From contig CAWEHK010000025.1 in the NCBI GenBank assembly GCA_963808625.1, positions 86,048 to 150,047 on the forward strand: a DNA stretch of 64,000 nucleotides, in the 5' to 3' direction. A program made the position numbers and the translations under genes. The notes under the pieces are model-generated. The model was not told the origin of the DNA. It saw only the letters and a program-made list of their open reading frames with translations, and did no database searches. The first letter of the stretch is position 1. Every line of letters starts with the position of its first letter. Shown here in pieces: positions 311 to 25,034 of the stretch. The DNA comes from an uncultured delta proteobacterium. Its GTDB lineage: Bacteria > Desulfobacterota > Syntrophobacteria > Syntrophobacterales > Syntrophobacteraceae.

Positions 311-2932
311 ATGAGCCCAACGGATGATCTGAAATGGCTTCGTGGAGGACGTCGTTTGATCCGGATGCTGGCTTCCGCCGGCTTGTTCTTCCTCCTGCTT
401 CTAGCGGCGGGGTCGGGACCTCGGGCCGAAGGAACGGGCGCCGATGCCTTCCTTCGGTTTACGGCCGGCGGTCATGTTCTGGGCTTCGGGAAAAGCGCCC
501 TGTACGTTGCCTCAGCCAACCACATGGTAAAGGTCGATTTGGCTGGAGGACGCGCGGTGGCGCCAGCCATGGAAGAAGGCGCGGTGTCAGGGGCGGGAGG
601 CGCTTCCGGCAAGGCGCCGCCCCTCAGCCGGGTTGCCTACTCGGAGGTATGGGATGGGGTAACGGTGATTTATGAAAAGCAGGACGACGCCATCTTGGAG
701 AGCTCCTATGAGATAAAGGCGGGCGCAGGGAGAAAGGCTCTCGAACAAATCCGCCTGCACTACAACCGGCCGGTGCGTCTTGATGAGCAAGGCGATCTGA
801 TCATCCCCTGCAAAACCGGAGCGATGCGCGAACGCGCGCCAGTAGCGTGGCAGGAGACCGGCAGCGGGAGAAAGTACGTGACCGCGGCGTATCGCCTCAT
901 GAGCGAGCATGAGGTCGGGTTCGAGGTGGGTGACTACGAGGGTGGGCTTCCCCTCATGATCGACCCGACCATGACCTGGAACACCTTTCTCGGCGGCAAT
1001 GATACGGATCAAGGCTATGGCATCGCTGTGGATGGAACTGGCAATGTCTACGTAGTAGGGGACAGTAATGACACCTGGGGCTCGCCTGTGCGCGCTTTTC
1101 AGGGTAACGGTGACGCCTTTGTGACGAAGCTTGACAGCAGTGGCAATCTTCTCTGGAGCACCTTCCTGGGCGGCGACGACTTCGATGAAGGCTTCGGCAT
1201 TGCCGTGGATGGCAACCTGACCGCGAATGTTTACGTGACAGGATATAGTTGGGCCGGTTGGGGCGAGCCCGTGCAGGGATTTTCTGATTACAGCAACGCC
1301 TTTGCGGCGAGGCTCGCGAGCAATGGTGCGGTTGTCTGGAATACCTTTCTGGGCGGCGGCGAAGCAACAACCTATGGCCAAGCCATTGCTGTGGACAGTA
1401 ATGCGACTGCGAATGTCTACGTGACCGGCTGGAGCGATGCCTCATGGGGTCCTTCGCCAGTCAGGCCTTACACAGGTTTGGATGATGCCTTTGCGGCCAG
1501 GCTCGGAAGTACTGGTGGGCTTGTCTGGAACACTTTTCTGGGGGGCAGCGGACAGGATGCCGGCTATGGCATTGCTGTGGATCAAAATGGCAACGTCTAC
1601 GTAGCAGGGGACAGCAATACCACGTGGAGCGAGGTACCGGTTCGACCATTTTCCGCCGGCGCGGACGCCTTTGCGGCGAAGCTTGACAGCAGCGGCAGTC
1701 TTACCTGGTATACCTTCCTGGGCGGGAGTGGCGAGGATCACGGAACCGTCATTGCGGTGGATGGCAATGCGACGGCAAACGCCTACGTGGCCGGATTCAG
1801 CTATGCTTCCTGGGGCTCGCCCGTCAATGCCTACTCGGGGGATGTAGATGCTTTTGCGGCCAGGCTTTCGAGCAATGGCGGGCTCCTTTGGAACAGCTTC
1901 CTGGGGAGCGAGAGCTATGATGACGGCCTTGGCATTGCCGTGGATAGAGACGGAAGTGTGCTTGTGACGGGTACCAGTACCGCCTCGTGGGGCTCGCCCC
2001 TGAGGGCGTTCTCGAATGCCGACAATCCCTCCGCCCACGATGCTTTTGTGGCAAAACTGAGTAGCAGTGGTTGGCTGACCTGGAATACCTTCCTCGGCGG
2101 CGAGCTGGCAACTACGTATGGCACGGCTGTAACCGTGGACACGATTACAAATGTCTACGTGACAGGTTATAGTGATTACACTTGGGGCTCGCCGGTGAGG
2201 GCACATTACCCATACGACCCGAACTCCAGCACCCTTGATGACGCCTTCGTCGCCAAGCTCCCGTCCACACCAACCCTGGTCGAGGTGGTTTCATTTCGTG
2301 CCAAAGCCGGAAGGGATTACATCGAGCTCACCTGGGAAACGGCTTCCGAGGTCCGGAACGTCGGCTTTTTCCTGTGGCGAAAAGGGAGCGGGGAGCGCTC
2401 CTCCGCCCGCATCAGCGGGTTCATTCCGTCCGAGAGCTTGTTTACCCTGGGCGCGAAGTATACCTATAAGGACATCGATGTGTTGCCGGGTGTCACCTAC
2501 CGATACCGCCTGGAGGATGTCGATATCCACGACGGGAGAAGCTTTCACGGCCCGGTGGCGGCAACCATCGGCGATATCGTCACGGTCGCCCCGAAGCAGG
2601 GGAAAAAGGTCCCGGTTCGACCACGTCCTCGTTTCAGGTGGACCAGCGAGTACTTCGACCGGTTCCGGCTGGAGTTCTCGGCAAGCCCCGGTTTTGAGTC
2701 AAAACAGGTGGTCGCCATCCCTCTGCCGAAAACTGGAGTAGCTGCCGCAAAGACCCCGTGGCTCACGGCCCAGTCCTACACGCCTTTGGCTCGGGAATGG
2801 AAAGCGATCAACCGGCTTGGCTCCGGTGGCGGGCGCGTGTATTGGCGCGTAGAGGGGAAGAACAAACTGGGCGCCACGTTCCGCTCCAAAGCGAGTCATT
2901 TTTCCCTGGACCTCGGGCCTGCGTCCCAATGA
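311..2932 (+). CDS. Secreted SBBP-repeat (beta-propeller) surface protein with a C-terminal PT-x-V-xx-F...W.T..E....GF domain and a basic tail domain
   Basis: Signal-peptide-like N-terminus; about 7 repeats of WNTFLGG..D.G.GIAVD..GNVYV.G.S...WG.P...DAF.AKL; PTLVEVVSFRA...WETASEVRNVGF...Y.Y.D...PGVTYRYRLEDVD domain. Confidence 0.88.
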   Translation: MSPTDDLKWLRGGRRLIRMLASAGLFFLLLLAAGSGPRAEGTGADAFLRFTAGGHVLGFGKSALYVASANHMVKVDLAGGRAVAPAMEEGAVSGAGGASGKAPPLSRVAYSEVWDGVTVIYEKQDDAILESSYEIKAGAGRKALEQIRLHYNRPVRLDEQGDLIIPCKTGAMRERAPVAWQETGSGRKYVTAAYRLMSEHEVGFEVGDYEGGLPLMIDPTMTWNTFLGGNDTDQGYGIAVDGTGNVYVVGDSNDTWGSPVRAFQGNGDAFVTKLDSSGNLLWSTFLGGDDFDEGFGIAVDGNLTANVYVTGYSWAGWGEPVQGFSDYSNAFAARLASNGAVVWNTFLGGGEATTYGQAIAVDSNATANVYVTGWSDASWGPSPVRPYTGLDDAFAARLGSTGGLVWNTFLGGSGQDAGYGIAVDQNGNVYVAGDSNTTWSEVPVRPFSAGADAFAAKLDSSGSLTWYTFLGGSGEDHGTVIAVDGNATANAYVAGFSYASWGSPVNAYSGDVDAFAARLSSNGGLLWNSFLGSESYDDGLGIAVDRDGSVLVTGTSTASWGSPLRAFSNADNPSAHDAFVAKLSSSGWLTWNTFLGGELATTYGTAVTVDTITNVYVTGYSDYTWGSPVRAHYPYDPNSSTLDDAFVAKLPSTPTLVEVVSFRAKAGRDYIELTWETASEVRNVGFFLWRKGSGERSSARISGFIPSESLFTLGAKYTYKDIDVLPGVTYRYRLEDVDIHDGRSFHGPVAATIGDIVTVAPKQGKKVPVRPRPRFRWTSEYFDRFRLEFSASPGFESKQVVAIPLPKTGVAAAKTPWLTAQSYTPLAREWKAINRLGSGGGRVYWRVEGKNKLGATFRSKASHFSLDLGPASQ

Positions 2933-2960
2933 GAATCCAGCCGTGGTGATATGGTTGCCG

Positions 2961-3059
2961 GTGCCGGCGGCAATGAGGACTCACGCTTCCTCGGGCAAAC
3001 CCCGGTTCCTGCTGGATATTTGCAGCATCCCTGGTGATCCGGCCTTGACGATGAAATAG
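2961..3059 (+). pseudogene. Relic of the extreme C-terminus of a C25 (gingipain-like) peptidase
   Basis: Translates VPAAMRTHASSGKPRFLLDICSIPGDPALTMK*, which aligns without gaps to [29 protein letters not shown] at the end of the C25 domain at 10778. Confidence 0.75.
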
Positions 3060-3552: not shown

Positions 3553-3608
3553 GAGGCTGTTGAACGTGGTATTGTCTTTCCCCCTGAGATGAGTTTTGAG
3601 AGGCAGCA

Positions 3609-3896
3609 ATGAGCTTGGCGGCACAACCTATCCCCAATCCGGCAGTGCTTTTTCGAGAGGTACCCATGGATGAGTGGGCCGTCCTGTTCAATCCGGAGAA
3701 CTTCTGTGCGATGTCCCTCAATGCCACCGGCGTGGTCGTGTGGAAATTGATCGACGGGCGGCGCACGATCGCGGAGATCGTCGCGGGGGTGAAAGCCCAT
3801 TTCAAGGACGTGCCGGACACGGTAACCGACGATATCGCCGCCCTGCTGAAAGTACTGAGTGGCGACGGTTACGTGGGGTATGAGGTAACCGCATGA
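3609..3896 (+). CDS. PqqD-family RiPP recognition element (ScmD-like)
   Basis: P.PNP.V.FRE..DEWAVLFNP......LNATGVVVWKLIDG.RT...I....F pattern; GAGG RBS. Confidence 0.88.
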   Translation: MSLAAQPIPNPAVLFREVPMDEWAVLFNPENFCAMSLNATGVVVWKLIDGRRTIAEIVAGVKAHFKDVPDTVTDDIAALLKVLSGDGYVGYEVTA

Positions 3897-4180
3897 AGAC
3901 AAGACAGTATGTGGCCAATCCGGTCGTCTCCTGCCGTGAGGAGGAAGGGGGCGCTGTGCTCTTCAATCCCGATACCGACGATATGGTCATCATCAACCCC
4001 ACCGGCCGGGTGATCTGGGACTTTCTCGCGACCCCTCGCAATACGGTGCAGGTAGCGGCTCACGTCGTAGAAAAGTTCCAGGGGGTTTCCCCCGAGCAGG
4101 CGGCGACCGATGCCGAAGCTTTCCTTCAGTCCCTGCTGCCGGACTTTATTCTGGAAGCGGAGGGGACTGATGAAGCCTGA
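3893..4180 (+). CDS. Second PqqD-family RiPP recognition element
   Basis: ANPVVSCREEEGGAVLFNPDT....INPTGRVIW; 4-nt overlap with the upstream gene (translational coupling). Confidence 0.88.
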   Translation: MKTRQYVANPVVSCREEEGGAVLFNPDTDDMVIINPTGRVIWDFLATPRNTVQVAAHVVEKFQGVSPEQAATDAEAFLQSLLPDFILEAEGTDEA

Positions 4181-5312
4181 GTCGATGGCGGCCATGGACC
4201 TGACCGTCCCACCCAAGGGTGTGCCCCCGGCCCCGAGAACGGTCGACCTGTCTCTTACGGGTCGCTGCAACTTGCAATGCCGCTATTGTTTTTTCGCGGA
4301 CTCGATGGCTGCGCTCACCGATCTCCCAACGGTGTCATGGCTCTCTTTCTTTGAGGAGCTTGGTGAGCTGGCGGTGCTGCGGGTGACCCTCTCCGGCGGG
4401 GAGGTCTTCACTCGCCCCGACTTGTTTCAATTGCTTGACGGCATCATCGCCGCCAGGATGCGCTATAGCCTGCTCTCCAACGGCACCCTCATCACCGAGC
4501 AGGTGATCCGCCGTTTTGAGGAAGGCAAGCGCCGTTTGCGCCTGGATTCCATCCAAATCTCCATCGATGGTTCCTGTGCCGAGGTCCACAACCGCAGTCG
4601 TCCGCCGGACAGCTTCGACCGCGCCCTGAATGGGCTCAAGCTGCTCAAGGCGAACGGCTTTCCGGTGACGGTCCGGGTTACGGTGAACCGGCATAACCTC
4701 GACGACCTGGAAAACATTGCCCGTTTGCTGCTGGAAGATATTGGCCTGAGCGGGTTCGGTACCAATGAAGTTGAATTCATGGGCGCCGCCCGCTGCCACG
4801 GCCAGGAAGTGGTGCTGACGCCGGGAGAGCGCCGGCAGGCCATGGCTGCCCTGGTCGCCCTGAACGAGAAATATGAGGGCCGCATCAGCGCCAATGCCGG
4901 GCCCCTCGCCGCGGCAAAGTCATTCTCGGACATCGAAGCCAGGCTGGCCCAGGGGGAGACGCACATGCCGGGTCGGGGGACCCTCTGCTCATGCGGCGGG
5001 GTCTTCAGCAAGATGGCAGTCCTCCACGACGGCGCGATGGTCCCCTGCGACATGCTCCCCACTCTGGTCATGGGCAGGGCGGGCAAAGATCCCTTGCGCG
5101 ATGCCTGGCTCCATCACCCGGCCATCAACGCCGTGCGAGCCCGGCGGGAGGTCCCCCTCAGCTCGCTCGCCACCTGCCGGGGCTGCCCTTACACCGGGTT
5201 CTGTGCGGGTGGGTGTCCGGCGTCGGTGATGGCCAAATATAGTCGTCTCGATGCCCGCGACCCCCTTTGCTGCTACCGGATCTACCGGGGAGAAGAGAGG
5301 GTTGATGGTTGA
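4170..5312 (+). CDS. scmE: Radical SAM/SPASM protein, SynChlorMet ScmE-like
   Basis: CNLQCRYC motif, SGGE, SNGTLI, SIDG; SPASM Cys set (CSCG...PCDM...CRGC.....CAGGC...CC); ATG at 4170 after GGAGG. Confidence 0.85.
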   Translation: MKPESMAAMDLTVPPKGVPPAPRTVDLSLTGRCNLQCRYCFFADSMAALTDLPTVSWLSFFEELGELAVLRVTLSGGEVFTRPDLFQLLDGIIAARMRYSLLSNGTLITEQVIRRFEEGKRRLRLDSIQISIDGSCAEVHNRSRPPDSFDRALNGLKLLKANGFPVTVRVTVNRHNLDDLENIARLLLEDIGLSGFGTNEVEFMGAARCHGQEVVLTPGERRQAMAALVALNEKYEGRISANAGPLAAAKSFSDIEARLAQGETHMPGRGTLCSCGGVFSKMAVLHDGAMVPCDMLPTLVMGRAGKDPLRDAWLHHPAINAVRARREVPLSSLATCRGCPYTGFCAGGCPASVMAKYSRLDARDPLCCYRIYRGEERVDG

Positions 5313-5356: not shown

Positions 5357-5380
5357 TGCTCGTTTGGGTTGATAACCTTG

Positions 5381-5545: not shown

Positions 5546-5613
5546 GAAGAATAAATATTTGAACCTTTACGAGTATGGTTGATGGATCTACCAGGGAGAA
5601 GAGCTTGAGTTCC

Positions 5614-6783
5614 ATGAGCTTGTGTGATTTTATGGAACCGGATAACGGCCAGAGCGGACCGCTGCCCCAGGATCTGCCCGAGGGCGTGCCGCCGCTTCGA
5701 GCCTTTTACCTTTATCTCTCCACCAGCTGCAACCTGCGCTGTCGCCACTGCTGGATCACCCCGAGCTTTGTCGACGGCATTCCGGCTGGCCGAGGACGTA
5801 ATTCCGGTGGAAGCGCTCCGGGATGCCGTGATCGAGGCCAAACCGCTGGGCCTCTGCCACGCCAAGCTGACTGGCGGGGAACCCCTCCTGCACCCGCGCT
5901 TTGTCGGAATCGTGGACATGCTGACGGCCGAGGGGTTGCAGATGAATATGGAAACCAACGGCACGCTGATGACTGCCGAGCTTGGCCGCCATCTCAAGGA
6001 GAAGACCAACGTCAGCTTCATCTCGATCAGCCTGGATGGGGCCGACGCCAAAACTCACGACCGGTTTCGCGGCGTGGTCGGGGCTTACGATGCGGCGTTG
6101 AGAGGATTGGCGCACCTGACGGATGCTGGATACAGCAACGTTCAGGTGATCATGAGCGTCCATCGCGGCAACCTGGACCAGATCGATGGCCTGGTGCGGC
6201 TGGTGGCGGACCGCGGTGCGGGATCGGTCAAGTTCAACCCGGTTAGCTTTGCCGGGCGGGGAACCACCATGCATGAGCGGGGGGAGACCCTGGACTACGA
6301 GGAGCGGATGGCCCTGGCCGCGGCCGTTCGAGAGGAGTTGCCAGAGACGTTTCTCCATCCCCCTCATCTGCTTTCATCCACCGGCCCAGAAATCCATGCG
6401 GCACCTGTGGGATACCTCGCCGACAGCCCACCGATTGCGGGGTCCGCCACATTCTGGGCATCCTGGGGACGGGGGACATTGCCTTGTGCGGGATCGGCCG
6501 GACCGTCCCCGAGCTGGTCTACGGGCAACTGGGGAAAAACAGCATCCGGGAGATCTGGTTGACACATCCCACGATCCTCGAGCTCCGCCGGCTTCTGGAC
6601 GACTTCAGGAATTTTCCCGGCATATGCGGCCGGTGCATCCATGCCAAAACCTGCCGCACGGGCTGTGTCGCGATGAACTATGTCGACGCTCGGCAACTCG
6701 TCTGGCCGGACCCGCTGTGCCAGGAGTCAGAACGACGAGGGCTGTTTCCGGCCAGCCGGAAAAGGAAATCCGGCGGCCCTTGA
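5614..6783 (+). CDS. scmF: Radical SAM/SPASM protein, SynChlorMet ScmF-like (frameshifted in the assembly)
   Basis: YLYLSTSCNLRCRHCWI; KLTGGEPLLHP; ETNGT; SLDG; C-terminal CGIG...GICGRCIHAKTCRTGC...PLC, spread over three frames. Confidence 0.8.
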
Positions 6784-7209: not shown

Positions 7210-7449
7210 GTGTTGAAAAATGGAAAGGACGATCTGACGGACCGGCGGCCAACATACGAACCACCACAGGCCTTACGCATGGATGATATCCATGCAGGGG
7301 CAGGTGGGCAGGATTGTACCTCTGGCGCTAGCGCTGGAGGTGCTAACTGCGCTACGGGCGGCGCCGCTATCGGTGGACAGTGTATTAGTCCAGGGACTTC
7401 TGCTGCTACTGGTCAATGTAAATTTGGTGATGGAGCCTCTACATTTTAG
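7210..7449 (+). CDS. Putative RiPP precursor peptide with a YxxP leader and a four-fold Cys/Gly/Ala repeat core
   Basis: RPTYEPPQALRMDD leader; core CTSGASAGGAN-CATGGAAIGGQ-CISPGTSAATGQ-CKFGDGASTF; GGAG RBS; lies among RRE and rSAM genes. Confidence 0.82.
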   Translation: MLKNGKDDLTDRRPTYEPPQALRMDDIHAGAGGQDCTSGASAGGANCATGGAAIGGQCISPGTSAATGQCKFGDGASTF

Positions 7450-7472: not shown

Positions 7473-8440
7473 GTGCCATGGGTGGAGGAACTCGATGAAA
7501 GCAGGGACCGGCGGATGGGGTTCGATTCGTCTCAAAAGAACTTTGGGGTCTTCTCCTGCGGGGGGGTTACTCTGATTCTAACACCATCCTCCACATATAG
7601 CCTTCCCCTTGCTGACGGGACCTGCTGGCTGGTTCGGGCCGGCGTCCCGGAGGCTGAGCACGTGGTGGCCCGTCTTGGAGCGGCTATGGAACTGCCGCCG
7701 GGCGGCGGCTCCGGCCGGGAACTGGTGGTTGGGTTCCACGGCCACCAGGCTTCCTCACCTGCTGCCCTGCGTGCAGCCCAGGGACCATCAGTGTGTCTGG
7801 TGAGCCCTCCCTGCAACGGGGAGAGGTTCGCCTTTCAGGCTATGCAGATATCCATGACCATCGTCAGGGATGCGCAGGTCCGTGGGGGATTGCTCATTCA
7901 CGGCGCGCTGGCCGCGTGGCAGGGGTCCGCTGAAAAGGCCGGCGGAATGGTTTCGGGTGCCATCATGGCGGGGCCGGGTAGCGTCGGGAAGACTACGGCC
8001 AGCAGTCGCCTGTCCGGCCCCTGGCGGTCCCTCAGCGATGACATGACCCTGGTGGTTCGTGACCCTCAAGGCCATTACTGGGCGCATCCCTGGCCCACCT
8101 GGGGGCGGTTTTTGGAAAATGCGGCCGGCGTTTCCTGGCCGGTGCCGCAGGGCCGTGCCCCTGCGGGCCGTTTTTTTCCTTTCCCAATCGCCCAACGACT
8201 CGGTAACCCCACTCAACACCGCCCAAACAATCGCCCTGCTGATCGAATCCGTGCAGCAGGCCTCCTCGCCCATGGTCTGCGCGTTGCCGGAGACCGAGGC
8301 TGCGGCTGTCTATGAGGAACAACTGGCGGCGGCCAGCGAGCTCGCCCGGACCATCCCTGCCTACCGGCTCAGCATAAGCCTGGACGGCGCCTTCTGGAAG
8401 GAAATGGAAAGCGTGCTCGCGGCGGCCCCAGCCCGCCCGG
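7473..8440 (+). CDS. scmC: HprK-like P-loop protein, SynChlorMet ScmC-like (frameshift near 8150; start uncertain)
   Basis: GLLIHGAL, Walker A GPGSVGKTT, LSDD, AHPWPTWG, AVPLRAVFFL.QS, ISLDGAFW. Confidence 0.75.
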
Positions 8441-9128
8441 TTGCATCTCGCCGAGCGTCACCCCCTTCGCCTCGGGTGCGACTGCCCGGAAGGTCCCCCG
8501 CTGCCGGTCGTCTACACCGGTCCCAGCATGAACCCCACCCTGCAGGGAGCCGGACCTGCTGGAGGTGGTCCCTTACGACGGAAGAGCGGTGTGCAAGGGG
8601 GACGTCATCTATTTCCACCCGCCGGGTGGGGGGCTCGCGGTCGTCCACCGGGTCGCGCGGGTCTTGCGGGAAGGCGTCCGCACCCGGGGAGACAACAACC
8701 CGATGGAAGACCCTTATTCTGTGCCTCATTCGGCCATTATCGGGCAGGTCGTAGCCGCGCAGCGGGATGGGCGTCGCCGCCGCGTCGCTGGCGGCTGGCA
8801 AGGCCGGATGCAATACCACCTGGCGAGGCTTGAAGGCACCGCGCTGCGCCTGGGCCAGAGACTCTTGAGCCGGCTGTACCAGGGGCTGGCAAGGTCCGGT
8901 CTCTTTCGCCAGGTCCTCCCCCCGAGGCTCACCCCCCGCCTGGTCGGGTTCGAAACGAGACGCGGCAGGCAGCTCAAGGTGATGATGGGAAGCCGTGCGG
9001 TAGCCCACTACCACCCGCTCGGGAGAGTGTGGCAGGTTCGTCGGCCCTTTCGCCTGTTTGTGGATGAGGCCGTTCTGCCCCGGCCCGAGAGCGAATTCCC
9101 TCAATCAGCCCCAGCGCTGGTGAAATAA
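8441..9128 (+). CDS. S24/S26-family signal-peptidase-like protein, possibly fused to ScmC (frameshifted)
   Basis: YTGPSMNPTL (catalytic Ser), GDVIYF, VVHRV, TRGDNN...D, IIGQV motifs. Confidence 0.75.
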
Positions 9129-9164
9129 CTGCAAGCAGATACCAGAACGCCCTCCATCTTTTTT

Positions 9165-9250
9165 ATCCACGAATTCACACGAAGATTTGTGAAGACACAC
9201 GAAGAACTCACTTCGTGGTCTTCGTGATCTTCGTGCTCTTCGTGGTGAAA
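9165..9250. repeat. CACGAAG-type inverted nonamer repeats (a further copy at 9833-9866)
   Basis: CCACGAATTCACACGAAG...ACACGAAG facing CTTCGTGGTCTTCGTGATCTTCGTGCTCTTCGTGG. Confidence 0.7.
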
Positions 9251-9424
9251 GATAAGGTGGTCTTTTGATTCATGCGCAGGGCCGGGTCCGCCAAGAACGC
9301 TGACCACGGTGATGGAGACTGGGTTGGGCATTGTACTGAAGCAGCCCAGTGGATCGGTAACGCGGACCGTGCAGGCCCCAAGCGGCGAAATGGAGAAGCG
9401 GTAGTGTGGTCGTCATGATCAAGT

Positions 9425-9526
9425 CTAGATGAAGACGTATTGCCCCTGCGTTGCTATAATGTCCACGGCATCGGGCAGTCCCTCGGCAAAGTCACAGTAA
9501 GTGTTGGTATCAAGGACCAGCTTCAC
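9425..9526 (-). pseudogene. vapC: Truncated VapC/PIN toxin
   Basis: GTG start overlaps the antitoxin stop; MKLVLDTNTYCDFAEGLPDAVDII... stops after 33 codons. Confidence 0.65.
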
Positions 9527-9762
9527 TCCCAGTCCCCTTCGTGGATCTCATTGAAGACCCGTAGTGAAGCTCGCAGCTCATCCGCTTCCTCGCGAGTCAT
9601 CCAACCCGCCAGCTCACGAACCAGCTTTTCGCGATTTTTCAGCAAGCCAAGCTTTTCATCAATAGCCTCAAGGATAAAAGCCGTCTTGGATTTTCCGGCT
9701 CTTCCTGCAACTTTTCGAATTATCGCCTCTTTCTCAGAAGGAATCCTCAGACTCACGGGCAT
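9523..9762 (-). CDS. Ribbon-helix-helix (CopG/VapB-like) antitoxin
   Basis: VSLRIP....I...A...GKSKTAFILEAI RHH pattern; GGAGG RBS; precedes a PIN start. Confidence 0.75.
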   Translation of the reverse strand: MPVSLRIPSEKEAIIRKVAGRAGKSKTAFILEAIDEKLGLLKNREKLVRELAGWMTREEADELRASLRVFNEIHEGDWE

Positions 9763-10029
9763 GGTTGATCACCTCCATGTATCGCCTTCGTGCGTTTTGT
9801 ATCTCAAATGGAGGGTGCTGTCAATTTTCTTCATCCACGAAGACACACCAACACGAAGACACACGAGCCTCTTGCAAAACTCAATAAGACCGTCACCCCG
9901 CTAGAAATGGCGGATACATCGGAAGTCACTGACCTACACTCTAGCGCGCATCCTCTCTACTCGGCGGTCAAAGCTATACCAGTTAAGGATGAGATAATAC
10001 GTTTTGATATGCTGGCTGAATGATGAATG

Positions 10030-10585: not shown

Positions 10586-10620
10586 AGAAAAGTGGCCCGC
10601 TGCAAAGTTTGCCAAATAGC

Positions 10621-13800: not shown

Positions 13801-16800
13801 TTGGTAACGCCGGCCCCCGAGGCGGTCAACGTGACCGCATAGGGATTGGCCTGGCTGTAGTTATCGCTCCCGGGACTTGTTCCCGTGGTCTTGTTAAACC
13901 CGCTCAGGACACTGGTTGCCACCACCTGGACCTGGTACTTGGCCGGAGGCAGGCCGCTGAAGACATACTCCCCATTGGCATTGGTCGTGGTGGTCCGGAC
14001 CAGGTTGTCGATCCCCGCATGGATGGCGGTATCATTGTTGTCCAGGTTGAGCCAGAGCTGCACCGTTACTCCCTGGATGCCCGGTTCCCCGGCGTCACGG
14101 AAGCCATTGCCATTGAGGTCATGCCATACCAGGTTACCGATGGCGCCCATGTTTGCCGCCCGATAGCCGAAATCGGCATCGTTGTAGACGGGCGACCCGC
14201 TGTTCAGGGTAATCGACCCGGTCGGGTTGGCGCCCGATGTCAGGGTCAGGCCGCTCACCGCGCCGTTCAGGTCACTCACCTGCACGGTATAGGTGCCGAA
14301 AGGGACCCCATAGAAATGATAGGTGCCGTTGTCATCGGTAGTCGTGGTGCCGACAACGACGCCGCTGTTGTTCAACAGATTGAGCGTCACCCCGCCGATG
14401 CCTTCACCCGCATTGAAGGTGTCACTGGCATTGCTATCCAGGAACACCTTGTCGCCGATGGTGCCGACGGAAGCGGTCGTATCGTCCTTGAAGCCGAAGT
14501 CAAGGGTCAGGTTAGCAGTGTTGGCCGGGATGCTCACCGTCTGGTTCACCGACCCGGTGGTCGGGGTCGGATTGTAGCCGGTGGGTGGCGTTACCGTCAC
14601 GGTGTAGGTCCCCGGATCATAACCGGTGAAGCGATACGTCCCGTCCGCAGCCGTGGTCGTGGTGGCGATGGTCGTACCGCCGTTCTTCAGCGTCACCGTC
14701 ACCCCGCCAATCCCCACTTCACCCGGGTCCTGGATGCCATTGTTGTTGGCATCGGAGAACACGGTGTCGCCCAGGGTTATCTTACCGGTGGCGCTGCCGT
14801 AACCGAAGTCGGCGTTCTCGTAAATCTGGCCTTCGCCCAGGTTGATGACGCCGGTCGGGTTAGTGCCCCCGGTCAGCGCCAGGCCGGTCAGCACGCCGCT
14901 GGTATCGGTAACTCTTACCTTATAGCCGCCCGCAACCAGGCCCTGGAATTCGTAGAACCCGGCGGCGTCGGTGGTGGTGGTGGTCGCGTTGTTGTCGTCG
15001 CCTGTTCCGAAGACCCCATCCGCCCCGGCATACACGAGCCTCAGGGTGACCCTGGAAATCCCGGCCTCACCCGCATTCTGCACGCCATCGCCATTCGCAT
15101 CCAGCCACACCCGGTCGCCGATGCTCCCGGTCGCCCCTTCGCGCACATAGCCGAAGTTGACATTGGTGACGCTGGTCGTCCCGACGACCGACACCGGATA
15201 CTGATCCAGACCGCTGGTCAACTGGTAGCCGTTCAGGACCCCGCCCTGATCGGTCACCTTGACCGTATAGCTCCCGGCCGGCACATCAAAGAAGCTGTAG
15301 GTGCCGTCGGCAGCCGTCGTGGTGGTGGCGATCACTTTGCCGGTGCTGTCCACGAGGGCCAGGGTCACCCCGGCCAGGCCGTTTTCACCGGCGTTGATGG
15401 CCGCATTCTTGTTGAGGTCGTTCCACACCGTTCCGGAAATATCCGCCAGTCCCGTATTCTGGAAGCCAAAGTCGGCGGTCAGGTAACGTGGGCTGGCTCG
15501 TGGTCACGAAACCATAGTCGTCAGTGGTCACCGAGCCGCTGCCGTTGACATCGAGCTGCCCCGCGATAACTTTCATGCCGTTCCACCAGCCGTTGTCGGA
15601 GGCATCTGCCGCACCGCTGCCGTTGAGGTCAAGCTTGCCGCTGATACACGGCGACCCCGTTGGCCATGCCGGTGTCGCTGCTGTTGATCGTGCCGTCCCC
15701 ATTCATATCGAGCAGGCCGCCAATGACCCGCACGCTGACGGCGCCCGTGCTGAGCGTGACGTCGATTTCCGTGCTGTTCGCCGTGGCCGGTTCCTGGTCT
15801 TTCGTCATGCGGGTGTAGCCGCTGAGAGCGGTCTGGGTGTCGGTCAATGCTGACGAAATAGGTCCCGGCGGCTAAGTCGTTGAAGTAGTAATGGCCGCTG
15901 CCGTCGGTCGTGCATGGTCGATGGAAATGTAGGTGCCCGCGATTGAAGATGCCGTCGCCGTTGTGTCCCGGTAGAGCGTGACCGTGACGCCGGCGATGCC
16001 CGGCTCACCCAGCATCCTGGAAGGCCATCGCCGTCGTGGTCGCTGAACACCGTGTCGCCTATCGGCCCCAGGCCCGCGTAGCCGAAATGTTCACCCGTAA
16101 GGCTGGCGCTGGCGATGGTCTCGCCGCGATAGCCCGCCTGGGCATCAGCCGTAGTGCCCTGGTAGTTGATGAGCTGCCCGGCGTTGTCGGCGATTTCCAT
16201 GACGTACTTGCCATTGGGCAGGCCGTTGAAGGAGAAGTTGCCATTGCTGTCCGTGTAGTCGGTGGCGATCACCGGATCCACCAGGATCGTCCCGTTATCG
16301 CCGGCTGCCGACGCCGCCGCTGCGGTTCATATCGAGCATGCCGTCGAATGACGGGAAGCCCATGTAGGCGCCGTCGTCGCCGGTATCAATACCATTGTTG
16401 CCGTTGAGATCCAGTTTCCCGCCGATCACCTTGATGCCCTGGGCCACCGTGCCATCGTCGGCGGCGGTGACATTCCCATCGCCATTGAGGTCAAGGAGGC
16501 CGTTGATCACGTGGGCGGTGACATTCCCGTCGCCGTTGAGGTCCTGGTAGAGGTTCACCGAGACCCCGGCAATGCCCGTCTCACCGGGACTTACCAGCCC
16601 GTCGCGGTTGGCGTCGTACCAGACTTTATCGGTAATGGAATAGAGACTGGTATTGCGATAGCCAAAGTCGGCGTCGAGATACACCTGGCCGGCGGCCACC
16701 GTGATCGGGGCGGTCGGATCGGTGTTCGACTGGGCCCCGGTGATGAGCGTATAGCCCGCCGGCGGCGTCGTGACGTCGACAATATACGTACCGGGATCGA

Positions 16801-19800
16801 CATTGGTGAAGTAGTAGGTGCCGTCGGCCGCCGTGGTCGTCGTGGCAACCGTCACATCATCGCCGGTGCCGAACTGCCCGTCCGCACCGGCGCTCTTCAG
16901 GGCCAGGGGCACGCCGCTGATCCCGGCTCCCCGCCATCCTGGATGCCGTTGCCATTGGCGTCGCTCCACACGAAGTTCCCGATGATGGCCTTGGTGGTGC
17001 TGGCGTTGGTGTAGCCGAAATCCACATCCAGTTTGTTCTGTCCGGCGGTGAGGGTAAACATTGCCGTCCGGGTTGGTCGTCCCGGGCGATTCCGTGAGCG
17101 CCCCCAGGATCGGGTATTTGCTCTCATCCACCTCGACTTTGTAGCTCACCCCGCCGGGCACGTCGGTGAACAGGTAGTTGCCGTTCATATCGGTCGTCGG
17201 TGCTGGCGACAAACGTGCCGTCGTCGCCTTCTTGAGCGTCCACCGTCACGTTGGCCAGGCCCGGCTCACCCACATCCTGCACGCCGTCACCGTCCACATC
17301 CAGCCACACGGTGTCGCCGATGGCCCCGGGCGGGCTCTGGATCTCGAAGTCACGCCCGGTGACGGTCTGGCCCACCGCCAGGTTACGCTGATGTTGTTGG
17401 GGTTGCCCCCGTCGCGCGTCCGCCAGGCTGGTGTAGCCGGACGGGTTCATCTTCGTCACCTGGTAGATCCGGGAGCCAGGTTGCTGAAGGTGTACAGGCC
17501 GCTGCCGTTGGTGGTCGTGGTGAACACCTGGTCGTCGGCGGTGCCCAGGATGCCGTCCGCACCCGCATAGGTCAGGAACACGGTGACGTTGGCCACGGCC
17601 GTCTCCGGCGGGACTTCGCAATGCCGTCCCCGTCGGCGTTCCTCACCACCGTACCGCTGATGGTGCCGAGACTCTTGTGGTAGCCGAAGTTCTCGTCGAT
17701 CACGTTGGCGCCGGTCGACCGTGACATCGGACTGGTTGTCGTTGGTCGGCGCGTCGGTGTCATAGGTCTGCACGTAGGCCGTCGAGGGAAGCGTGCTGGT
17801 GTCCACCTTGACCACGTATTCGCCGTTGGGCACGCCCGCTGAAGGTGTAGTTGCCGCCGGCGTTGGTGGTCGTGGTCGCGAACACCGTGTCACCGGCATC
17901 GTAGACGTTATTGTTGTTGGTGTCGTTGTAAAGCGTCACGGTGACGCCGGCAATCCCCGGTTCTCCGCCGTCCTTGTCACCGCCGTTGTCGTTGGTCATC
18001 CCAGACCGTGCCGCTGACGTTATAGCTGGTCGAGTTCCGGTAGCCAAAATCGGCATAGCCGATGGTTGCGCCGCCGGTCAGGGTGGTGGCGGTCTGGTTG
18101 TCGCAGCCGCCTATGGACCCGCACGGCAGCCCGTTCGGCGAGCCGGAAGTGCTTTCGCCCGTTGCCGTGAAACCGGTCGGCAGGGTGGTGGTATCCACCT
18201 TCACCACGTATTTCTGATTCGAAGTGGTATTCGGCAGGCCGAGGAACTGGTAGAGGCCGGTGGCGTCGGTGGCCTGGGCCGTGATGAAGGTTTGGTCGCC
18301 CGTGGTCGTGACGTTGCCGTCGGCATCCAGGTAGAGTTTCACCGTCACGCCCGCCAATCCCGGCTCTCACCGGTGGTCTGGTTGCCGTCGCCGTTGGCGT
18401 CGTTCCACACCCGGTCGCCGATCTTGCCGGTGTTGTCCACGCCGAAGTCGAACACCGCTTGCCAATCCTCGCCGGGATAGGCATGGAAGGTGATAGCTGG
18501 TGGGCGTGGTGGCGTCCGGATAGCCCATCGCCGTCGTCTGCGCGGTGTTGTAGGTGAGGGTGTAGTTGCCCTCGGGCACCACGAAGGAGAAATGCCCGGT
18601 CGGCGTCGGTGGTGGTGGTCTCCGTTAATCGGGTTGCCGAACATGTCGGTGCCGGTGAGCGTCACCGTCACCTGGGTCAGGCCGTTCTCGCCCGGCTCGC
18701 TGCTGTCAAAGAGGCCGTTGCGATCGGCATCCCAGAAGACATTGCCCTCCACCTTCGCGCCCTGGAAGTAGCCGAAGTCGGCGGTCCTGATAGCTCTCGC
18801 CGGCGGCCAGGTTCTTGTACACCACGTTATTGGTGGTGGGCACGATGTTGCGCACGCCGTTGGTGGTGATGCTGTCCTCGTAGACATCCACCAGGTAAGG
18901 TCCCGGGCGGCAGATTGGCGAACTGGTAGGCGCCGCTGGCGTTGGTAGGGCTTAAAGCCGACCTGGTAGTCGCCGTTGGCCGGATCAAGAATGCCGTTGC
19001 CGTTGGCGTCGAAGTAGAGCAGGTCACGACGGCATTGGCGATGGCCCTGCGTCGCGTTCTCATCCTGCAACCCGTTGGCGTTGTCGTCCCACCACACGTA
19101 ATTGCCGATGCTGCCGGCCCAGTTGTAGCCGAAGTCGGCGGTCAGGTAGACCGTCGATTGCTGGCCAGCGTCGAGGGTGACGTCGTGCATGCCGTTGGGC
19201 GGCGGCGTTGTGATGGGCGAGCCGCCTGGCACCGCTCGAGGCTCGCCGGGAAGTCCGCGGTAGGTCGAAGTCACGTCCACCAGGTAGTTGCACCGCGCGC
19301 GGTAATCACCGGCGGTCAGGCCGGTGAAAAGGTAGTTGCCGGTGGCGTCGGTCGTGACGGTCGAGGAGCAGGTCGCCGACATCGATCGCCCGTCGTTGTT
19401 CATGTCGGCATAGAGCCGCACGTCCGACGTTCGGCATCGCGGTTTCACCCGCATCCGACCACGCCATTGCCGTTGGCATCGAGCCAGACGGTGTCGCCGA
19501 TACTGCCCTGGTGCCCGGGGCGGCCGCAGGCCGAAGTCGGCGTCGCTGTACTGCTCGGTCGGCGCCCAAGCTTGGTGTGGTCTGCAGCAGGGGCGTGCTC
19601 GCCACATAGCCCTGGCCGGGATGAGAGTAGCGGACGTTATACGGCGGTGCCCGCGGTCAGGCCATAGAAGCGATAAAGGCCGGTGGCATCGGTGGTGGTC
19701 CACTGCTCGCCTTCGCCGCTGTCCCAAACACCGTTGTCGTTGCCGTCGGTCCAATCGAGGAACGCCATCGTTCGGCGTCAAGCTAGACCGTGACATTCGC

Positions 19801-22800
19801 GATGCCCGGTTCGCCCGTGTCCGTGTCGGGCCCACTCCGTCGCCGTCGAGGTCGGCCCACACGAGGTCGCCGATGCTGGGGCCGATGGCGGTGGTGGCGT
19901 CGTCGCTGGCATCCAGTCCCGCGCCTTCGTCGGTCAGGGTGGCAGTGTTGTTGACCTGGGTCACCCGGCGTATTGTTGACGGTGACCTGATAGGTCAAGG
20001 GCGGGCTGGCGCGCAGCCCTTCCGACGTGCCGGCGTTGAAGGTCACGCCGCTGGACGAGGTGGGCTTGCCCCGGAAGGTGACCGACGAGGGCGAGCCGCC
20101 CGGCGTGACGCTGCACACGTACTTGAAGGTGACCGGAACATCGGCCGCGAGATCGACCGGGCCGGTCGGAGCCGCGCTGCCGCAGCTCACGGTGGCCGCA
20201 CCGGGGTTGATGGTCAGGCTGCCCGGGCTGACCCCGGTGACGGCCGCCTTGGCCGAGACCATCATGGTCACTTCCACCTCGCTGGCGGTCGTGCCGGAGT
20301 GCAGGCGGTCGTTGATGTGCAGCTCGGTGCGCGTCTCGGTGGACGTGGTGGGTGTCAGGGTCCAGTTGACGATCAGCTTGGGCCGGTTGGCGGCAGTGGT
20401 GGATTCGCGGGACGAGTAAACGACGTCATTGTCGAGAATTGCCGCCCGTACCGGTGGTGATCAGCACCAGCCCCTTGTTGATCTTGGTTCCGGCGACCCA
20501 GGCTTCCACCAGGGTCTTCAGCGCGGCGTTGCTGAGGGTCTTCAAGCCGGTGGAAGACGGGTCGATGGTCCCCAGGGCCGTGCCGTTGTAGTCGCTGGTG
20601 GAAAACGTCGCCGCTGGCCCAGGTGGCTGCCGTTCGTCCTTGTCCCAGGTCGCACCGGTTTCGGTCCAGCCGCCGGTCGTCATCTCGTAGACGGAGTCGG
20701 TGTGGCCGGTCCTGCGCGCGTCAGGACATTCATCTGCAGGGTCACGCTGTTGATCGTGGCGCCCGAGGGGATGCTGCTGAGGTCGAAACGCAACAAGGCG
20801 TTCGGTCGTTCGTTGGTCTTGCTCGCGTGGTGACAAGGTCGTCAGAGGTGCCGTTATTTTTGGCCTGCTCCGGGTCTTTCCGTTGATCTAGGTATCGGCC
20901 ACCGCCGGGGCATCAGCGTCACCCGAGCAGGCGCTGCTGGACTCGTAGAGATAGTTGATGACGAGCGCCGGCTTGGTGGTGCCGGAGCGGCTGACACCAG
21001 GTCGCGTCCGCGTTCTCACTGGTGCCGGTCGCCAGGAGGACCATGCCGTTGTTGGGGCCGGTCTGCCAGCTCTTGACCAGGTCCGTCACAGCGAAGGTGG
21101 CGGTGGTTTCGGTCTGGGGCACCACAAAGGAGCCGTAAGACAGTGGCGCCGTAGTCGCTGGCGCCGAACCCGCCGCTCGTCGCCCAGTCGCCCGCAGCAG
21201 CCCCATTGGGATCGTTCCAGGTGGCCGTCGTCTCCGCGAAGGCGGTCAGCAGATTACGCACCTGGACCGTTTGCTGCTTCTTGTTATTGGCGTAGTTCGC
21301 CGACATCGTGATCTGGAGCGTGGCCGACTGGATCGAGGCGCCGGCCGGCAGAGTGCTCAGGCTGAAGTGCAGGAGCGCATGCTTCTTCTTGTTGGTCTCG
21401 TTACTGGTCTTGAAAGTGGTGGTCGTGCCACTGGCATCGCCGGCGGTATCTTTCGAGTTCTCGTTGATAAACGTGTCCGCGTCGGGGTTCAACGGTCAGC
21501 GTCGCCGGGCAGAAGACCTTGCCGGAGGGCGGGGTGATGCCGGGCTGGGCGGCGCTGTTGCCGCCGAGGGACCAGACGATGGAGTCCAGGCTGCCATCGT
21601 CGGATCGATCGATCAAGGAACTCGCCGCCCGCATTCGCGCTGTCGGTCACATACGTGGTGCCCGCCGGGATCGGGTCGGTCACCTTGGCGTTGGTCAGCA
21701 GCTCAGGCCCCGGGTACTTCGGCAGGATGGTGTAGGTGAGGGTCTGTCCGGCGCGTGGCCGTGGCGAGATTCACCGTCTTGTCGATCAGGGGCTCGAAGG
21801 GGAAGTCGGCCGTCAGGTAGGCGGTGCCGGCGGGCAGAGCGATCGCATACTGGGTCGACGCTGGTCGACAAACCGGCCGGGATGTCCGATCGGAGGTGTC
21901 CACCACGACGATGTAGTCGTCGGCATCAGGCCGTCGAACAGGTATTTGCCCGTGGCGTCGGTAACTGTGGTCACCGCCGTGGCCGCCTCATTGCCATCGA
22001 TGATGCCGTTGCCGTCCAGGTCTTGATACAGGGTGACGGTCACGTTCGCCAGCGGGGTGTCGCCGGTGGTGAAATTGCCATCACCGTCGCGGTCGATGAA
22101 GACCTGATCGCCGATGGAGCTGGGGACGAGCCGGTCGTAGCCGAAGTCCTGCGTGGAAGTGCCGGAGAGGTTCAGACACCGGGCGCGGGTCTACCCCGTC
22201 CGCGCCGGAGACCGCAGAATAGGTGTCAGAGCCGAAATGGCCGGCGAGATCCGGGTCGGTCTGCACGATGTCCACCAGGTAGCTCAGGCCGCTGGCCAGG
22301 CCGGTGAACTCGTAGATAGCCGTTGGCATTGGTCACGGTCGGTGGCAATCAGCAGATCACCGGTATCGATCTGAGCCATTGCCATTGGTGTCTTCGTAGA
22401 GGTTGACCGTGACATCATCGATCTCGGTGTCGGCCGTAGTGTAGTCGTTATCGGGCGCGGCCGAGTCTTCGTAGACGGTGCCGTTGATGGCCGCCGTGCC
22501 GGCGGGCCTGTAGCCGAAGTCGATCGTCGAGGTCGCGCCGTTTTCCGGCAGGACCACCAGGGCCCGGCCATCCAGCGAGCCTTGCGGATCACCGGTCAGG
22601 ACATAGCCGGCCGGGACGCCGCTGTCGATGGCCACCCAGTAGGTTGCGGCGGCAAGCCCGGTGAACGAGTAGAGGCCGCTGCTATTGGTCGTGGTCGGTC
22701 TGCACGCCAACGTCGTCATCGCCGGTGGGCTCGAAAATCCCGTCGCCGTCATCTTTGTACAGTTTAACGGTAACGACCGGAGATCCCTTCCTCGCCGCTG

Positions 22801-25034
22801 TCCTGCACGCCGTCGCCGTTCCAGTCCCGCCAGACGAAGTCGCCGATGGTGCCGGCGCCCAACGCTAACACAGGCCGCCGAAGCCGGTGGTGATGGGCAC
22901 ACCGTTCTGGGTCACCGAATAGGTGTTGCAGTAGTACGCCGGGGCTGGCGTTCGCAGGGACATTGGCCCGGAAGGTGATGGTGAGCTGGTTGTTGGCCGC
23001 GATCGCGGCCGGGATGGTGAACAGGGGCTGGTTGAGGCTGTTGGGGCTGGCGGTGCTGACCGTCGGGGTGATCGCCGCACCGTTGACCTTGGCCACGGGC
23101 GTGTAAGTCGCATCATAGGTGAACCCGGTGGGCAGGAATTCCTTCACCGTCACCGGGCTGCCGGTGGGGCCGCCGCCGATGTTCCTTGACCAGGACGTCA
23201 TAGATCACCGTGCCGCCGGGCGTCACGGTGGTGGATCGCGCGGTCTTCGTGGGCACCAGGAAGGGATAAGGCCCCGAGACGGTGGTGTCACATGCGGATT
23301 GCGGAGGCATCTGGTCCGAGTAGACCGTCATGCAGTTGTCGACATACCCGGTGGCGCTGGCCTTGACGGTGACGATGGCCTCGAATTTCTCGCCCGGCAG
23401 CAGCGTGCCGACGTTCCACACCAGCGGGTTGGGGCCGGTGCTCTGGGCCGGGAACAGCACTGATGAAGGTCACGCCGCTGGGCAGGGTGTCCTTCACCAC
23501 CACGTTTGTCAGGGAAAAGGCCTGGAGGTTGTAGACCTTTACCGGGTACTGGTAGGTATCGCCGGACTTGATGAGCTCCTTGTCGGCGGGCTTGCCCGGC
23601 AGCACACAGAGATTCATCTCGATTTCAGTGGGTTCGTAGTAGCGCCACAGGTGGTCTTTGCCGTTGTCGGTGCCGCCGGCGTCCCCGCCAAAGGTGTCGC
23701 CGTGCAGGTAGGGGCAGCCGTCGGGGTCGGTGATGTTGGCCGTGCTGCTGGTCACCCTGATCTTGACCCAGGCATACTCGGGCCGGTAGGCGGTGAGCTG
23801 GCCGACGGCCCAGCGGATGGCATTGGTGCTGGTGGTCGGTCTGCGACAGCGGATTGCTGGGGCTGACGGCATAGCGCCGATGCTGCCGGCATCCTTGCTG
23901 GCATAGCCGAGCACGGTCGGAGATCAGGCCGGGCTGGTCGTAGGAGACGCGGCTGCCGGGATACTTGATGCGTTTCCAGGGGCCGATCTGGTCGGTGCTC
24001 ATGGCCGCCTGCATGTGCGGCGGGTCCGGGGGCTACCGCTGCGCCACTTTAGTCCCAGTCGAAGTTCCATGCGTAGCCGCTCTGCGGGCCGGCGACGCCG
24101 CTGGCGAAACCCCAGGGGGCGTTGCCGCGGCCGTCGGCGTAGTCGACGATGGCGTTGGCCGCCACGCCGCGCGGCAGCACTGTAAGTCGTGCCCTTGGCG
24201 CCCCAGCCATAGAGCTGCTCGGCATCCCACTTGTTGCAGGGCACGACCACGTCGCCCGAGTTGTTGGTGATGGTCCGGCCGTTCGGCACGATGCCTTTGA
24301 GCGCCGCGATGGCGAGGCTGCCGCAGTGGTTGGCGGTGAATCGGCATCGTTCCAGTCGCTTGCCGCTCCGCCGTTGGCCTTGGTGAAGCGCTGCCAGGAA
24401 CCGTAGGCCGTGTCGGGGTCGGTGGAGTAGAAGATGCCGGTGTCGCCGTAGACGCCGGCGATAGTGCCGAGATGCAGGCCGCTGCGGGGTTACCGCCGTC
24501 GAGGAAAGCGCCGCTGGCGGTGCTGTCTGAACAGCGTGCTGAAGCCCACGAGCTGGCGGTGGCCTTGGCGCCGATGGGGCCGGCGCCGACCGCGATGGGC
24601 GACTGGCCCTTCATGGCCGCCTTGTCGTAACCGCCGGCGCCGTTGGGAATGACGTAGCCGACATCAACCACCTCCACGCCCTCGGGGACGTAGAAGTCGA
24701 TGTGGCCGCCGACGCCGGTGGTGGTGCCGTCGCGCGGAATCACCTTGATAATGATGCCGAGCTCATCGCCCACCTGGAGCACCGGCTGGCCGGGCGCCCA
24801 GCTCCGGCAGGCCAGGCAGACCAATAGCAGCACAGGAGGCGGGTAGGGCGTGGTGACCTCGAGGCGGGCATCGATACAGGCCTGGGTCTCGGGGTCGAAG
24901 AACATGTAAACCATGCGGGTCTGCAGGTTGTGCGCCCAGATGGCGGTGACGCTTACCAGGGTAAGGACGAATCCCAACGTGACGATCCACCCAAGCTTTT
25001 GCCGCTTCGTTCTCGTGCCGCTCTGTGTCTTCAT
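10778..25034 (-). CDS. Giant secreted adhesin-like protein (~4700 aa if intact): DUF11, DNRLRE-like and many SdrD B-like repeats, C-terminal C25 gingipain-like peptidase; heavily frameshifted in the assembly
   Basis: Signal peptide at 25034; recurring IGD.VW.D.NGDG.QD.GE.GI.GVTV.L...TTTT...G.Y.F...DFG units; DADTFINE...ALLHFSLS domains; C25 motifs [44 protein letters not shown]; fragments are collinear with no clear intergenic gaps. Confidence 0.75.

Follow-up and report, generated by a model that had tools for sequence, protein, structure and literature searches.

A predicted SynChlorMet-type peptide cassette beside PorU-like C25 peptidase sequence in an uncultured Syntrophobacteraceae bacterium

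The window analyzed here is a stretch of 64,000 nucleotides from an uncultured delta proteobacterium of the family Syntrophobacteraceae (GenBank assembly GCA_963808625.1, contig CAWEHK010000025.1, positions 86,048 to 150,047 of the forward strand), whose source is a metagenome-assembled genome (MAG) of 4.8 Mb in 54 contigs, 84.6% complete and high in GC. Near its start the window carries what is, judging by gene content and profile matches, almost certainly a SynChlorMet-type maturation cassette for a peptide synthesized on the ribosome and modified after translation (RiPP), with two RiPP recognition elements (RREs), two radical SAM/SPASM maturases, a precursor, an HprK-like protein and an S26 peptidase. 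On one side of it lies an SBBP beta-propeller protein followed by a relic of a C25 cysteine peptidase, and on the other a convergent giant surface-protein region that ends in a PorU-like C25 domain. This is the sole cassette with two radical SAM/SPASM genes that we found beside C25, and we offer it as a lead, not as proof, that some cassette peptides belong with C25 proteins; sister cassettes with a single radical SAM/SPASM gene are joined to C25 genes of the same clade, in this genome and in others. The features of the locus, numbered from the first letter of the window, are as follows.

311..2932, + strand: SBBP beta-propeller protein, 873 aa, intact (Pfam SBBP 1.3e-26, DUF7948 1.3e-21)
2216-2566, + strand: D1, a tail domain of the SBBP protein (aa 636-752), matching the stretch before C25 in the giant gene and in the C25 gene of contig C12
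2567-2929, + strand: D2, a second tail domain of the SBBP protein (aa 753-873), matching the C-terminus of operon-type C25 proteins
2931..3059, + strand: C25 relic, the last 42 codons plus stop, found by BLASTP against the end of the C25 domain of the giant protein
3609..3896, + strand: RRE1, PqqD-type peptide chaperone, ScmD-like (Pfam PqqD 1.8e-14; TIGR04248 72.0 bits)
3893..4180, + strand: RRE2, second PqqD-type chaperone (Pfam PqqD 4.3e-12; TIGR04248 37.7 bits; lasso_PqqD_Strm 36.3 bits)
4110..5312, + strand: ScmE, radical SAM/SPASM maturase, intact (TIGR04250 388.3 bits; Pfam Radical_SAM and SPASM; CxxxCxxC motif)
5575..6783, + strand: ScmF, second radical SAM/SPASM maturase, in three frame pieces (TIGR04251)
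7210..7449, + strand: precursor peptide, 79 aa, GTG start, with a YxxP-type leader and a core rich in Gly, Ala, Ser and Thr, as read from its translation
7473..8420, + strand: ScmC, HprK-like P-loop protein, in two frame pieces (TIGR04249; Walker A motif)
8441..9128, + strand: S26 peptidase, resembling SipW/archaeal-type signal peptidase I, in two frame pieces (TIGR02228 40.4 bits)
9158..10593, no strand: spacer between the cassette and the giant gene, filled with short dispersed repeats
10781..11895, - strand: PorU-like C25 cysteine-peptidase domain, at the C-terminus of the giant protein, in three frame pieces (PF01364)
13127..13453, - strand: copy of D1 in the giant protein (tblastn against aa 636-752 of the SBBP protein, 33% over 111 aa, 5.9e-9)
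10781..25034, - strand: predicted giant surface-protein gene, about 14.25 kb and about 4,750 codons if read through, recognized by its domain matches
3345-3558, 5300-5577, 6818-7168, 9158-9253 and 10023-10593: dispersed repeat elements, which fill the intergenic spacers

The assignment of the cassette rests on its content and order. Two PqqD homologues, two radical SAM/SPASM genes and ScmC are clustered on the + strand between 3609 and 8420, which is the SynChlorMet set (TIGR04248 to TIGR04251), and the models of that set are the best NCBIfam match of each. The two RREs of the original prediction hold up as Pfam PqqD matches, and the ScmD model TIGR04248 is the best NCBIfam match of both, yet their scores lie below its cut-off of 100 bits. 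Among solved chains the top match of RRE1 is LppB (9x8z_B, 8.8e-7), ahead of PqqD and of the lasso RRE TbiB1; the matches of RRE2 to solved structures were repeat-protein noise and were discarded. Both radical SAM/SPASM enzymes claimed earlier are present, ScmE in one intact frame and ScmF in pieces. ScmE, at 388.3 bits against a cut-off of 400, covers TIGR04250 positions 1-350 of 358; one sub-lineage among the genome loci lies at 376.6-401.6 bits. ScmF was scored piecewise owing to its frame breaks, and its pieces reach 31.8, 168.2 and 92.4 bits at TIGR04251 positions 2-29, 37-212 and 246-352, in order, against a cut-off of 400. The HprK-like protein and the S26 peptidase are likewise present as predicted, each in two frame pieces instead of one frame. 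The ScmC pieces score 71.5 and 76.7 bits over TIGR04249 positions 110-201 and 201-292, each below the cut-off of 125, with a simple sum above it. The larger S26 piece scores 15.9 bits with the SipW model, and for the peptidase a hidden Markov model trained on S26 genes from eight ScmE loci gives 202.6 bits; the two pieces show Ser, His and Asp motifs, and the protein is the probable leader peptidase of the system and the only cassette-type S26 in this genome. An ATP-binding cassette (ABC) exporter of the cassette type, which the original prediction had reported as absent from the cassette, was found by tblastn neither in the 64-kb window nor in the 20 kb upstream, and the same stretches hold no NTP-transferase of family PF14907, the genome's single copy of which stands alone on contig C51.

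For comparison we assembled 98 other ScmE loci: 15 lie on genome contigs, 80 on metagenome contigs, 38 of which are at least 7 kb long, and 3 come from same-genus or same-family genomes and were taken with ±20 kb of flank. The precursor that had been proposed for the window, the 79-aa open reading frame (ORF) at 7210-7449, has the leader and Cys core seen in these loci. Its core contains four Cys at a spacing of 11-12 residues, and similar small ORFs with a YxxP leader and a Cys-repeat core occur in 14/15 of the genome-contig loci and in all three loci of the relatives; none is listed for L018, L020 or L022, the last of which also lacks the rest of the cassette. The leader common to ScmE loci has basic residues, Tyr-x-x-Pro, a hydrophobic residue and then Leu/Gly or Asp-Leu, and the cores hold 3-10 regularly spaced Cys. 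Precursors were chosen by eye from the hits of a loose regular expression, many of which are false: it gives 6.1 hits per 100 kb in control loci and 13-14 in cassette loci. In sequence terms, the shared leader and Cys core define a predicted precursor family of the ScmE cassette.

Several other genes travel with ScmE. An S26 peptidase accompanies it in 8/15 genome loci and in 27 of the 38 longer metagenome loci (at least 7 kb), an MsbA-like ABC exporter in 8/15 and 29/38, and the PF14907 NTP-transferase in 9/15 (Pfam) or 10/15 (tblastn) genome loci and in 20/38 metagenome loci; HprK-like genes too are found with it in many loci, and polysaccharide export or synthesis genes lie nearby in 6/15 genome loci. 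The controls, 65 other radical SAM/SPASM loci amounting to 983 kb, contain no C25, no S26 and no NTP-transferase, with a single HprK-like match. The window differs from most of its SynChlorMet relatives in having neither ABC exporter nor NTP-transferase, and it is the only one of the 99 cassettes to stand beside C25. Genomes of the same genus or family have ScmE genes of their own, those of G001 (L005/L006), G006 (L007/L008) and G015 (L009/L010), at 41-47% identity to that of the window. No ABC exporter, NTP-transferase or S26 gene was found by tblastn within ±20 kb of the cassettes in G001, G006 and G015, and a DNA search for the locus in same-genus genomes returned, among the matches listed, only repeat elements and no orthologous locus. 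The cassette of the window is therefore not an ortholog of those three and was probably acquired separately.

ScmF, ScmC, the S26 peptidase and the giant surface-protein gene are all spread over several reading frames, which could mean that the locus is a decaying remnant, with real frame breaks and a system that is dead in this organism. At least four breaks fall within 3.6 kb of the cassette and many more in the giant gene, the exporter and the NTP-transferase are missing, the C25 relic testifies to earlier gene decay at this very place, and repeat elements occupy the spacers. Against this stands the state of rpoC, an essential gene, which in the same assembly (G000 contig C22:89339-93327) is likewise in five reading-frame pieces, with C/G runs of 4-5 bases (C5, G5, C4G3) at 3/4 of its junctions, so that the breakage looks like a property of the assembly. 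The broken genes of the locus retain ordered, full-length model matches with no missing domains, and their catalytic motifs are intact. Because rpoC of the same MAG is equally broken, the frame breaks in the locus are best read as assembly indels and not as decay; since such indels are assembly-wide, a gene of this genome should be called a pseudogene only with support from reads. Two public read runs contain only 0.06-0.07 of the sampled words of the window, and the contigs from them are short and consist mostly of dispersed repeats. Ranking the locus by decay, whether from the coverage of long stop-free frames or from codon-usage gene calling, proved too noisy at high GC. We consider a dead remnant very improbable.

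The SBBP protein was expected to be secreted, and it is intact, with an N-terminus that resembles a signal peptide by eye. It was also expected to share a domain with the giant protein, and this domain is D1, which in this genome occurs only in the SBBP, giant and contig C12 C25 genes; D2, the last domain of the SBBP protein, matches aa 994-1076 of the C25 protein L107 at 9.3e-15. The relic begins directly after the SBBP stop codon, in a different frame, on the cassette strand and 550 nt upstream of RRE1. Its residues (2931-3056) align without gaps to the C25 end of the giant protein (window:10781-11251(-)), with 18/42 identical and 28/42 positive and both sequences reaching a stop codon, which bears out the earlier recognition of a C25 relic behind the SBBP gene, and at the DNA level 59 nt of it match the reverse complement of 10779-10837 with 73% identity. 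The orientation of the relic is that of the linked operons of contig C12 and of relatives, in which the cassette comes after the 3' end of the C25 gene. The convergent giant adhesin of the original prediction is confirmed in its domains and in its C25 end and not as a single ORF, the region comprising at least 18 stop-free pieces. It includes an N-terminus like that of a signal peptide (by eye), DUF11, CBM96, SdrD_B repeats (13488-22850), D1 and C25; about twenty SdrD_B matches are distributed over twelve frames, and the C25 domain over three. Because frame breaks are found assembly-wide, as in rpoC, we infer that this - strand region is one gene of about 14.25 kb.

The three C25 pieces of the giant protein cover PF01364 model positions 1-42, 44-204 and 206-374. 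Among solved structures PorU (6za2, 2.8e-5) ranks above gingipain R as their top match, and the His and Cys columns that we take to be the catalytic residues of the C25 fold are conserved in the alignments to both. PorU models are the only NCBIfam models that the C25 proteins match, all below cut-off: with NF033707 (PorU; cut-off 420) the window pieces score 75.0 and 80.6 bits and L107 scores 280 bits, short of a full-length match. The window and linked C25 proteins thus resemble PorU, the type IX sortase, and the gingipains over the C25 domain and the region that precedes it; they differ from PorU in scores below the model cut-off and, in the giant protein, in a C25 domain that stands at the very C-terminus. 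In a tree of 44 C25 domains (quick IQ-TREE search; Shimodaira-Hasegawa-like approximate likelihood ratio test, SH-aLRT), the window C25, the contig C12 gene (L092) and a linked gene from a genome of the same family (L093) form one clade with support of 100. A larger clade of 30 rows (support 90) takes in the window together with every one of the 15 linked rows; the 14 rows that fall elsewhere are all unlinked.

The one further C25 gene of this genome lies on contig C12 and belongs to a sister cassette that has one radical SAM/SPASM gene and is the second peptide cassette of this genome. This locus reads:

L092, G000:C12:8000-27999, positions 5068-12897: AgmC-like gene, PorU-like C25 (frame-broken), 61-aa ORF with a YxxP leader (9970-10155), HprK-like gene, PqqD and radical SAM/SPASM, in that order

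Upstream of it is a GNVR chain-length gene, and no S26-like gene is present; the best NCBIfam match of its HprK-like gene is ScmC, at 53 bits. HprK-like loci number exactly two in this genome, as do loci of this C25 clade, and each of the one kind is paired with one of the other. Beyond the window we collected 61 C25 loci, including 13 from ScmE-bearing genomes and 47 from a sample of 301 genomes of the phylum, 33 of which carry C25, and scanned them with locally built profiles. A radical SAM/SPASM gene, an HprK-like gene or both lie within 5 kb of C25 in 15/61 loci (13 with radical SAM/SPASM, 2 with HprK-like only), and in 10 loci an S26-like gene immediately adjoins the C25 gene or forms a fusion with it. 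The complete genome G015 carries two linked operons and, in addition, one canonical cassette. The commonest linked layout consists of PqqD, a precursor, PqqD fused to radical SAM/SPASM, an HprK-like gene, a PorU-like C25 protein and an S26-like peptidase. The C25 protein of this layout is about 1,100 aa long, with a start that by eye resembles a signal peptide and a Propeptide_C25 domain; the precursors have a YxxP leader and a short core of Cys, Pro, Ser and Thr, and the HprK-like proteins of the linked loci match HprK_rel_A/B and Hpr_kinase_C weakly. At L098 (G055:C152, 5683-10533), a single frame of 1,616 aa that follows directly after a radical SAM, precursor and HprK-like cassette joins an N-terminal S26/S24-like domain, a subtilase (S8) and a C-terminal C25. 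Of this C25-linked class with a single radical SAM gene, the window holds all six kinds of part, arranged otherwise than in an adjacent layout on one strand: it has two radical SAM genes, of the ScmE/ScmF type, its C25 gene is convergent and 1.65 kb off, and only the upstream relic has the operon orientation.

Two further C25 loci, L116 (G310) and L117 (G282), carry a stand-alone PqqD, an HprK-like and an S26-like gene beside C25, with no radical SAM/SPASM gene and no recognizable precursor in the fetched flanks. They may represent a form without radical SAM that is joined to C25 and resembles the linear polyphosphorylated peptide (LPP) clusters discussed below.

The sister cassettes, which have the same parts and are joined to genes of the same C25 clade here and elsewhere, are our reason for regarding the surroundings of the window cassette as a functional neighborhood. 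A number of observations weigh against this, and several of them speak for a coincidental rearrangement, by which a SynChlorMet cassette that had lost its ABC exporter and NTP-transferase came to land by surface genes, its peptide being unrelated to C25. First, the original prediction had expected C25, SdrD-B and SBBP genes to be enriched near ScmE homologues, and C25, SBBP, D1, D2, SdrD_B and the N-terminus of the giant protein were found near none of the 98 other ScmE loci (0/98); in the 18 genomes searched whole, C25 is either missing or lies on a different contig or over 200 kb from ScmE, and no ORF above 900 aa occurs in the 15 genome-contig loci. Second, the nine closest loci (59-69% ScmE identity, at least 7 kb) have the ABC exporter in 9/9, the NTP-transferase in 8/9 and C25 in 0/9, and in most of them the exporter and NTP-transferase sit just upstream of RRE1, in the place that SBBP occupies here; the window itself offers no exporter to carry the peptide out of the cell. 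Third, the giant gene and the cassette are convergent, and 1.65 kb filled with repeat elements lies between them, so the two are not in the same operon. Fourth, the one C25 adjacency observed over about 99 cassettes is close to the number expected by chance, which for two C25 loci in a 4.8-Mb genome we estimate at a few tenths over that number of cassettes, and the window was selected for its C25 adjacency. The wider linkage has its own weak points. A ScmC-like gene detectable with TIGR04249 stands beside C25 in this genome only, among 301 genomes of the phylum, and the C25 link emerged with a protein query and more sensitive local profiles and not with that model; the fetched flanks of roughly one in two close C25 homologues contain no cassette; and related genomes are not independent, so that the linkage counts overstate the support. 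Finally, frame breaks affect the giant gene and several genes of the cassette, and an assembly origin of these breaks is no more than probable.

Against chance we set the C25 sequence that flanks the cassette on either side (in the relic, 2931-3056, and in the giant gene), the pairing of HprK-like and C25 loci in this genome, with its one further C25 gene joined to a sister cassette, the placement in the tree, where both other members of the window's C25 clade are cassette-linked, and the parts common to the two cassette families. Taking these together with the contrary observations, we regard coincidental rearrangement as somewhat unlikely, and a real functional link between the peptide and C25 as evenly poised between true and false. 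The coupling of peptide and surface protein proposed in the original prediction is refuted, by the criterion stated there, for ScmE/ScmF cassettes, and a real link between this kind of cassette and surface proteins that end in C25 is favored by the sister cassettes, the C25 clade and the relic.

As the original prediction said, no SynChlorMet product is known to have been characterized, and our literature search found no paper that names the family and none that links C25 or PorU to radical SAM RiPP cassettes. The accessory genes of the cassette now have a studied relative in the LPP clusters of Bacillota, with the genes LppA/K/B/S/D/N (PMC13381572, Nat Commun 2026). According to that paper, which establishes what LppB, LppK and LppS do, 9x8z shows LppB in complex with the LppA leader, one Ser is polyphosphorylated by the kinase, the RRE depends on a YxxP motif, and the peptidase cuts off the leader only when the RRE presents it; the precursors have a YxxP leader, and the clusters often lie within capsular polysaccharide loci (PMC13381572). 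The main text of the paper does not mention radical SAM, and Radical_SAM, Peptidase_C25 and Propeptide_C25 are among the 834 column heads of its supplementary domain matrix (PMC13381572). The window shares with LPP clusters a discrete RRE next to a SipW-like signal peptidase I, a predicted HprK-like kinase and a [Y/W]xxP leader, and the polysaccharide setting is common to both (6/15 ScmE loci; capsular loci in PMC13381572). An MsbA-like exporter and an NTP-transferase are shared by most of the window's relatives and not by the window. What the window adds is two radical SAM/SPASM enzymes, a Cys-repeat core and another phylum, and its product is probably cross-linked where that of LPP clusters is linear. 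On the strength of these sequence likenesses, the window cassette is best understood as a radical-SAM-bearing relative of LPP clusters outside Bacillota.

Other known systems are more distant. Lasso tailoring of the paeninodin and pseudomycoidin kind, with an HPr-kinase homologue and a nucleotidyltransferase, has PqqD-type RRE leader recognition in common with the window (PMC8498205). The window cassette has neither a lasso cyclase nor a B2 cysteine peptidase, and its precursor does not end in Ser. Among the C25-linked precursors of the contig C12 type, 4/5 do end in Ser. The thioether maturases PapB, StsB, AlbA and SCIFF give weak NCBIfam matches, far below cut-offs; sactipeptide and ranthipeptide maturases are alike in being RRE-dependent radical SAM/SPASM enzymes that act on Cys cores, and differ in leader type, kinase and S26 peptidase.

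If the parts behave as their studied homologues do, a PqqD-type RRE would bind the YxxP motif of the precursor leader, the HprK-like ScmC would phosphorylate a Ser or Thr of the peptide, and the SipW-type S26 peptidase would cut off the leader once the RRE presents it. ScmE and ScmF would cross-link the four regularly spaced Cys, most likely as thioethers, and beyond the cytoplasm the secreted PorU-like domain might then act on the matured peptide, which it could trim or could attach, in the manner of a sortase, to a surface polymer or to the giant protein itself. We place the meeting of C25 and peptide after export because the C25 proteins look secreted, and since PorU is sortase-like, our first guess is that the peptide is cleaved and perhaps also transferred to a surface acceptor. 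A sortase-like step as such, argued by analogy, seems unlikely on present evidence, and doubtful to a further degree is the general proposal that PorU-like C25 proteins outside Bacteroidota are sortases for small phosphorylated peptides cross-linked by radical SAM enzymes, cutting them after export and joining them covalently to surface polysaccharide or to the giant adhesin in which the C25 domain resides.

The same linkage of C25 genes and cassettes could also arise if the peptide regulated the peptidase, a small cross-linked peptide keeping a secreted cysteine peptidase in check until its activity is wanted and serving neither as substrate nor as decoration of the surface. Cross-linked RiPPs are able to act as protease inhibitors, and the cores of the linked precursors are short, rich in Cys and Pro and conserved beside the protease gene. 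No likeness to a known inhibitor was seen, however, and the C25 proteins of the linked operons come with a Propeptide_C25 domain of their own, a domain that serves inhibition in gingipains. Protease inhibition is the weaker rival to cleavage or transfer, and we think it a distinctly remote explanation.

Some features of the window lie apart from the cassette and its surface proteins. The dispersed elements in the spacers measure about 90-260 bp each and number from some tens to over 200 in the genome (up to 97 for those of the spacer at 9158..10593); they recur in genomes of the same genus and, at high depth, on wetland metagenome contigs, and in sequence they look like miniature inverted-repeat transposable elements (MITE) or repetitive extragenic palindromic (REP)-like elements. 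Positions 27496-31280 form a small mobile or defense patch, with a PIN gene accompanied by a Phd/YefM antitoxin-like stretch, a YhgA-like Transposase_31 and a DUF433/DUF5615 pair. On the - strand at 31360-38242 are probable secreted hydrolases, comprising an M14 carboxypeptidase (515 aa), a 740-aa DUF7467 protein, and CARDB with a papain-like Peptidase_C1, the pieces of which appear frame-broken.

SynChlorMet cassettes are found widely among anaerobes and sediment bacteria, and the tie to LPP gives their RRE, kinase and S26 peptidase roles that can be tested, while the definition of a precursor family makes heterologous production practical. The recurrent link of sister cassettes to C25 suggests for some RiPPs a purpose at the cell surface, in place of that of a free antibiotic, and it suggests a role for PorU-type proteins outside type IX secretion; our literature search found neither idea. 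If the sortase reading is true, the cell surface of these bacteria would be decorated with RiPPs, and the window would be a bridge form, a SynChlorMet cassette with two radical SAM genes that was recruited to such a protease.

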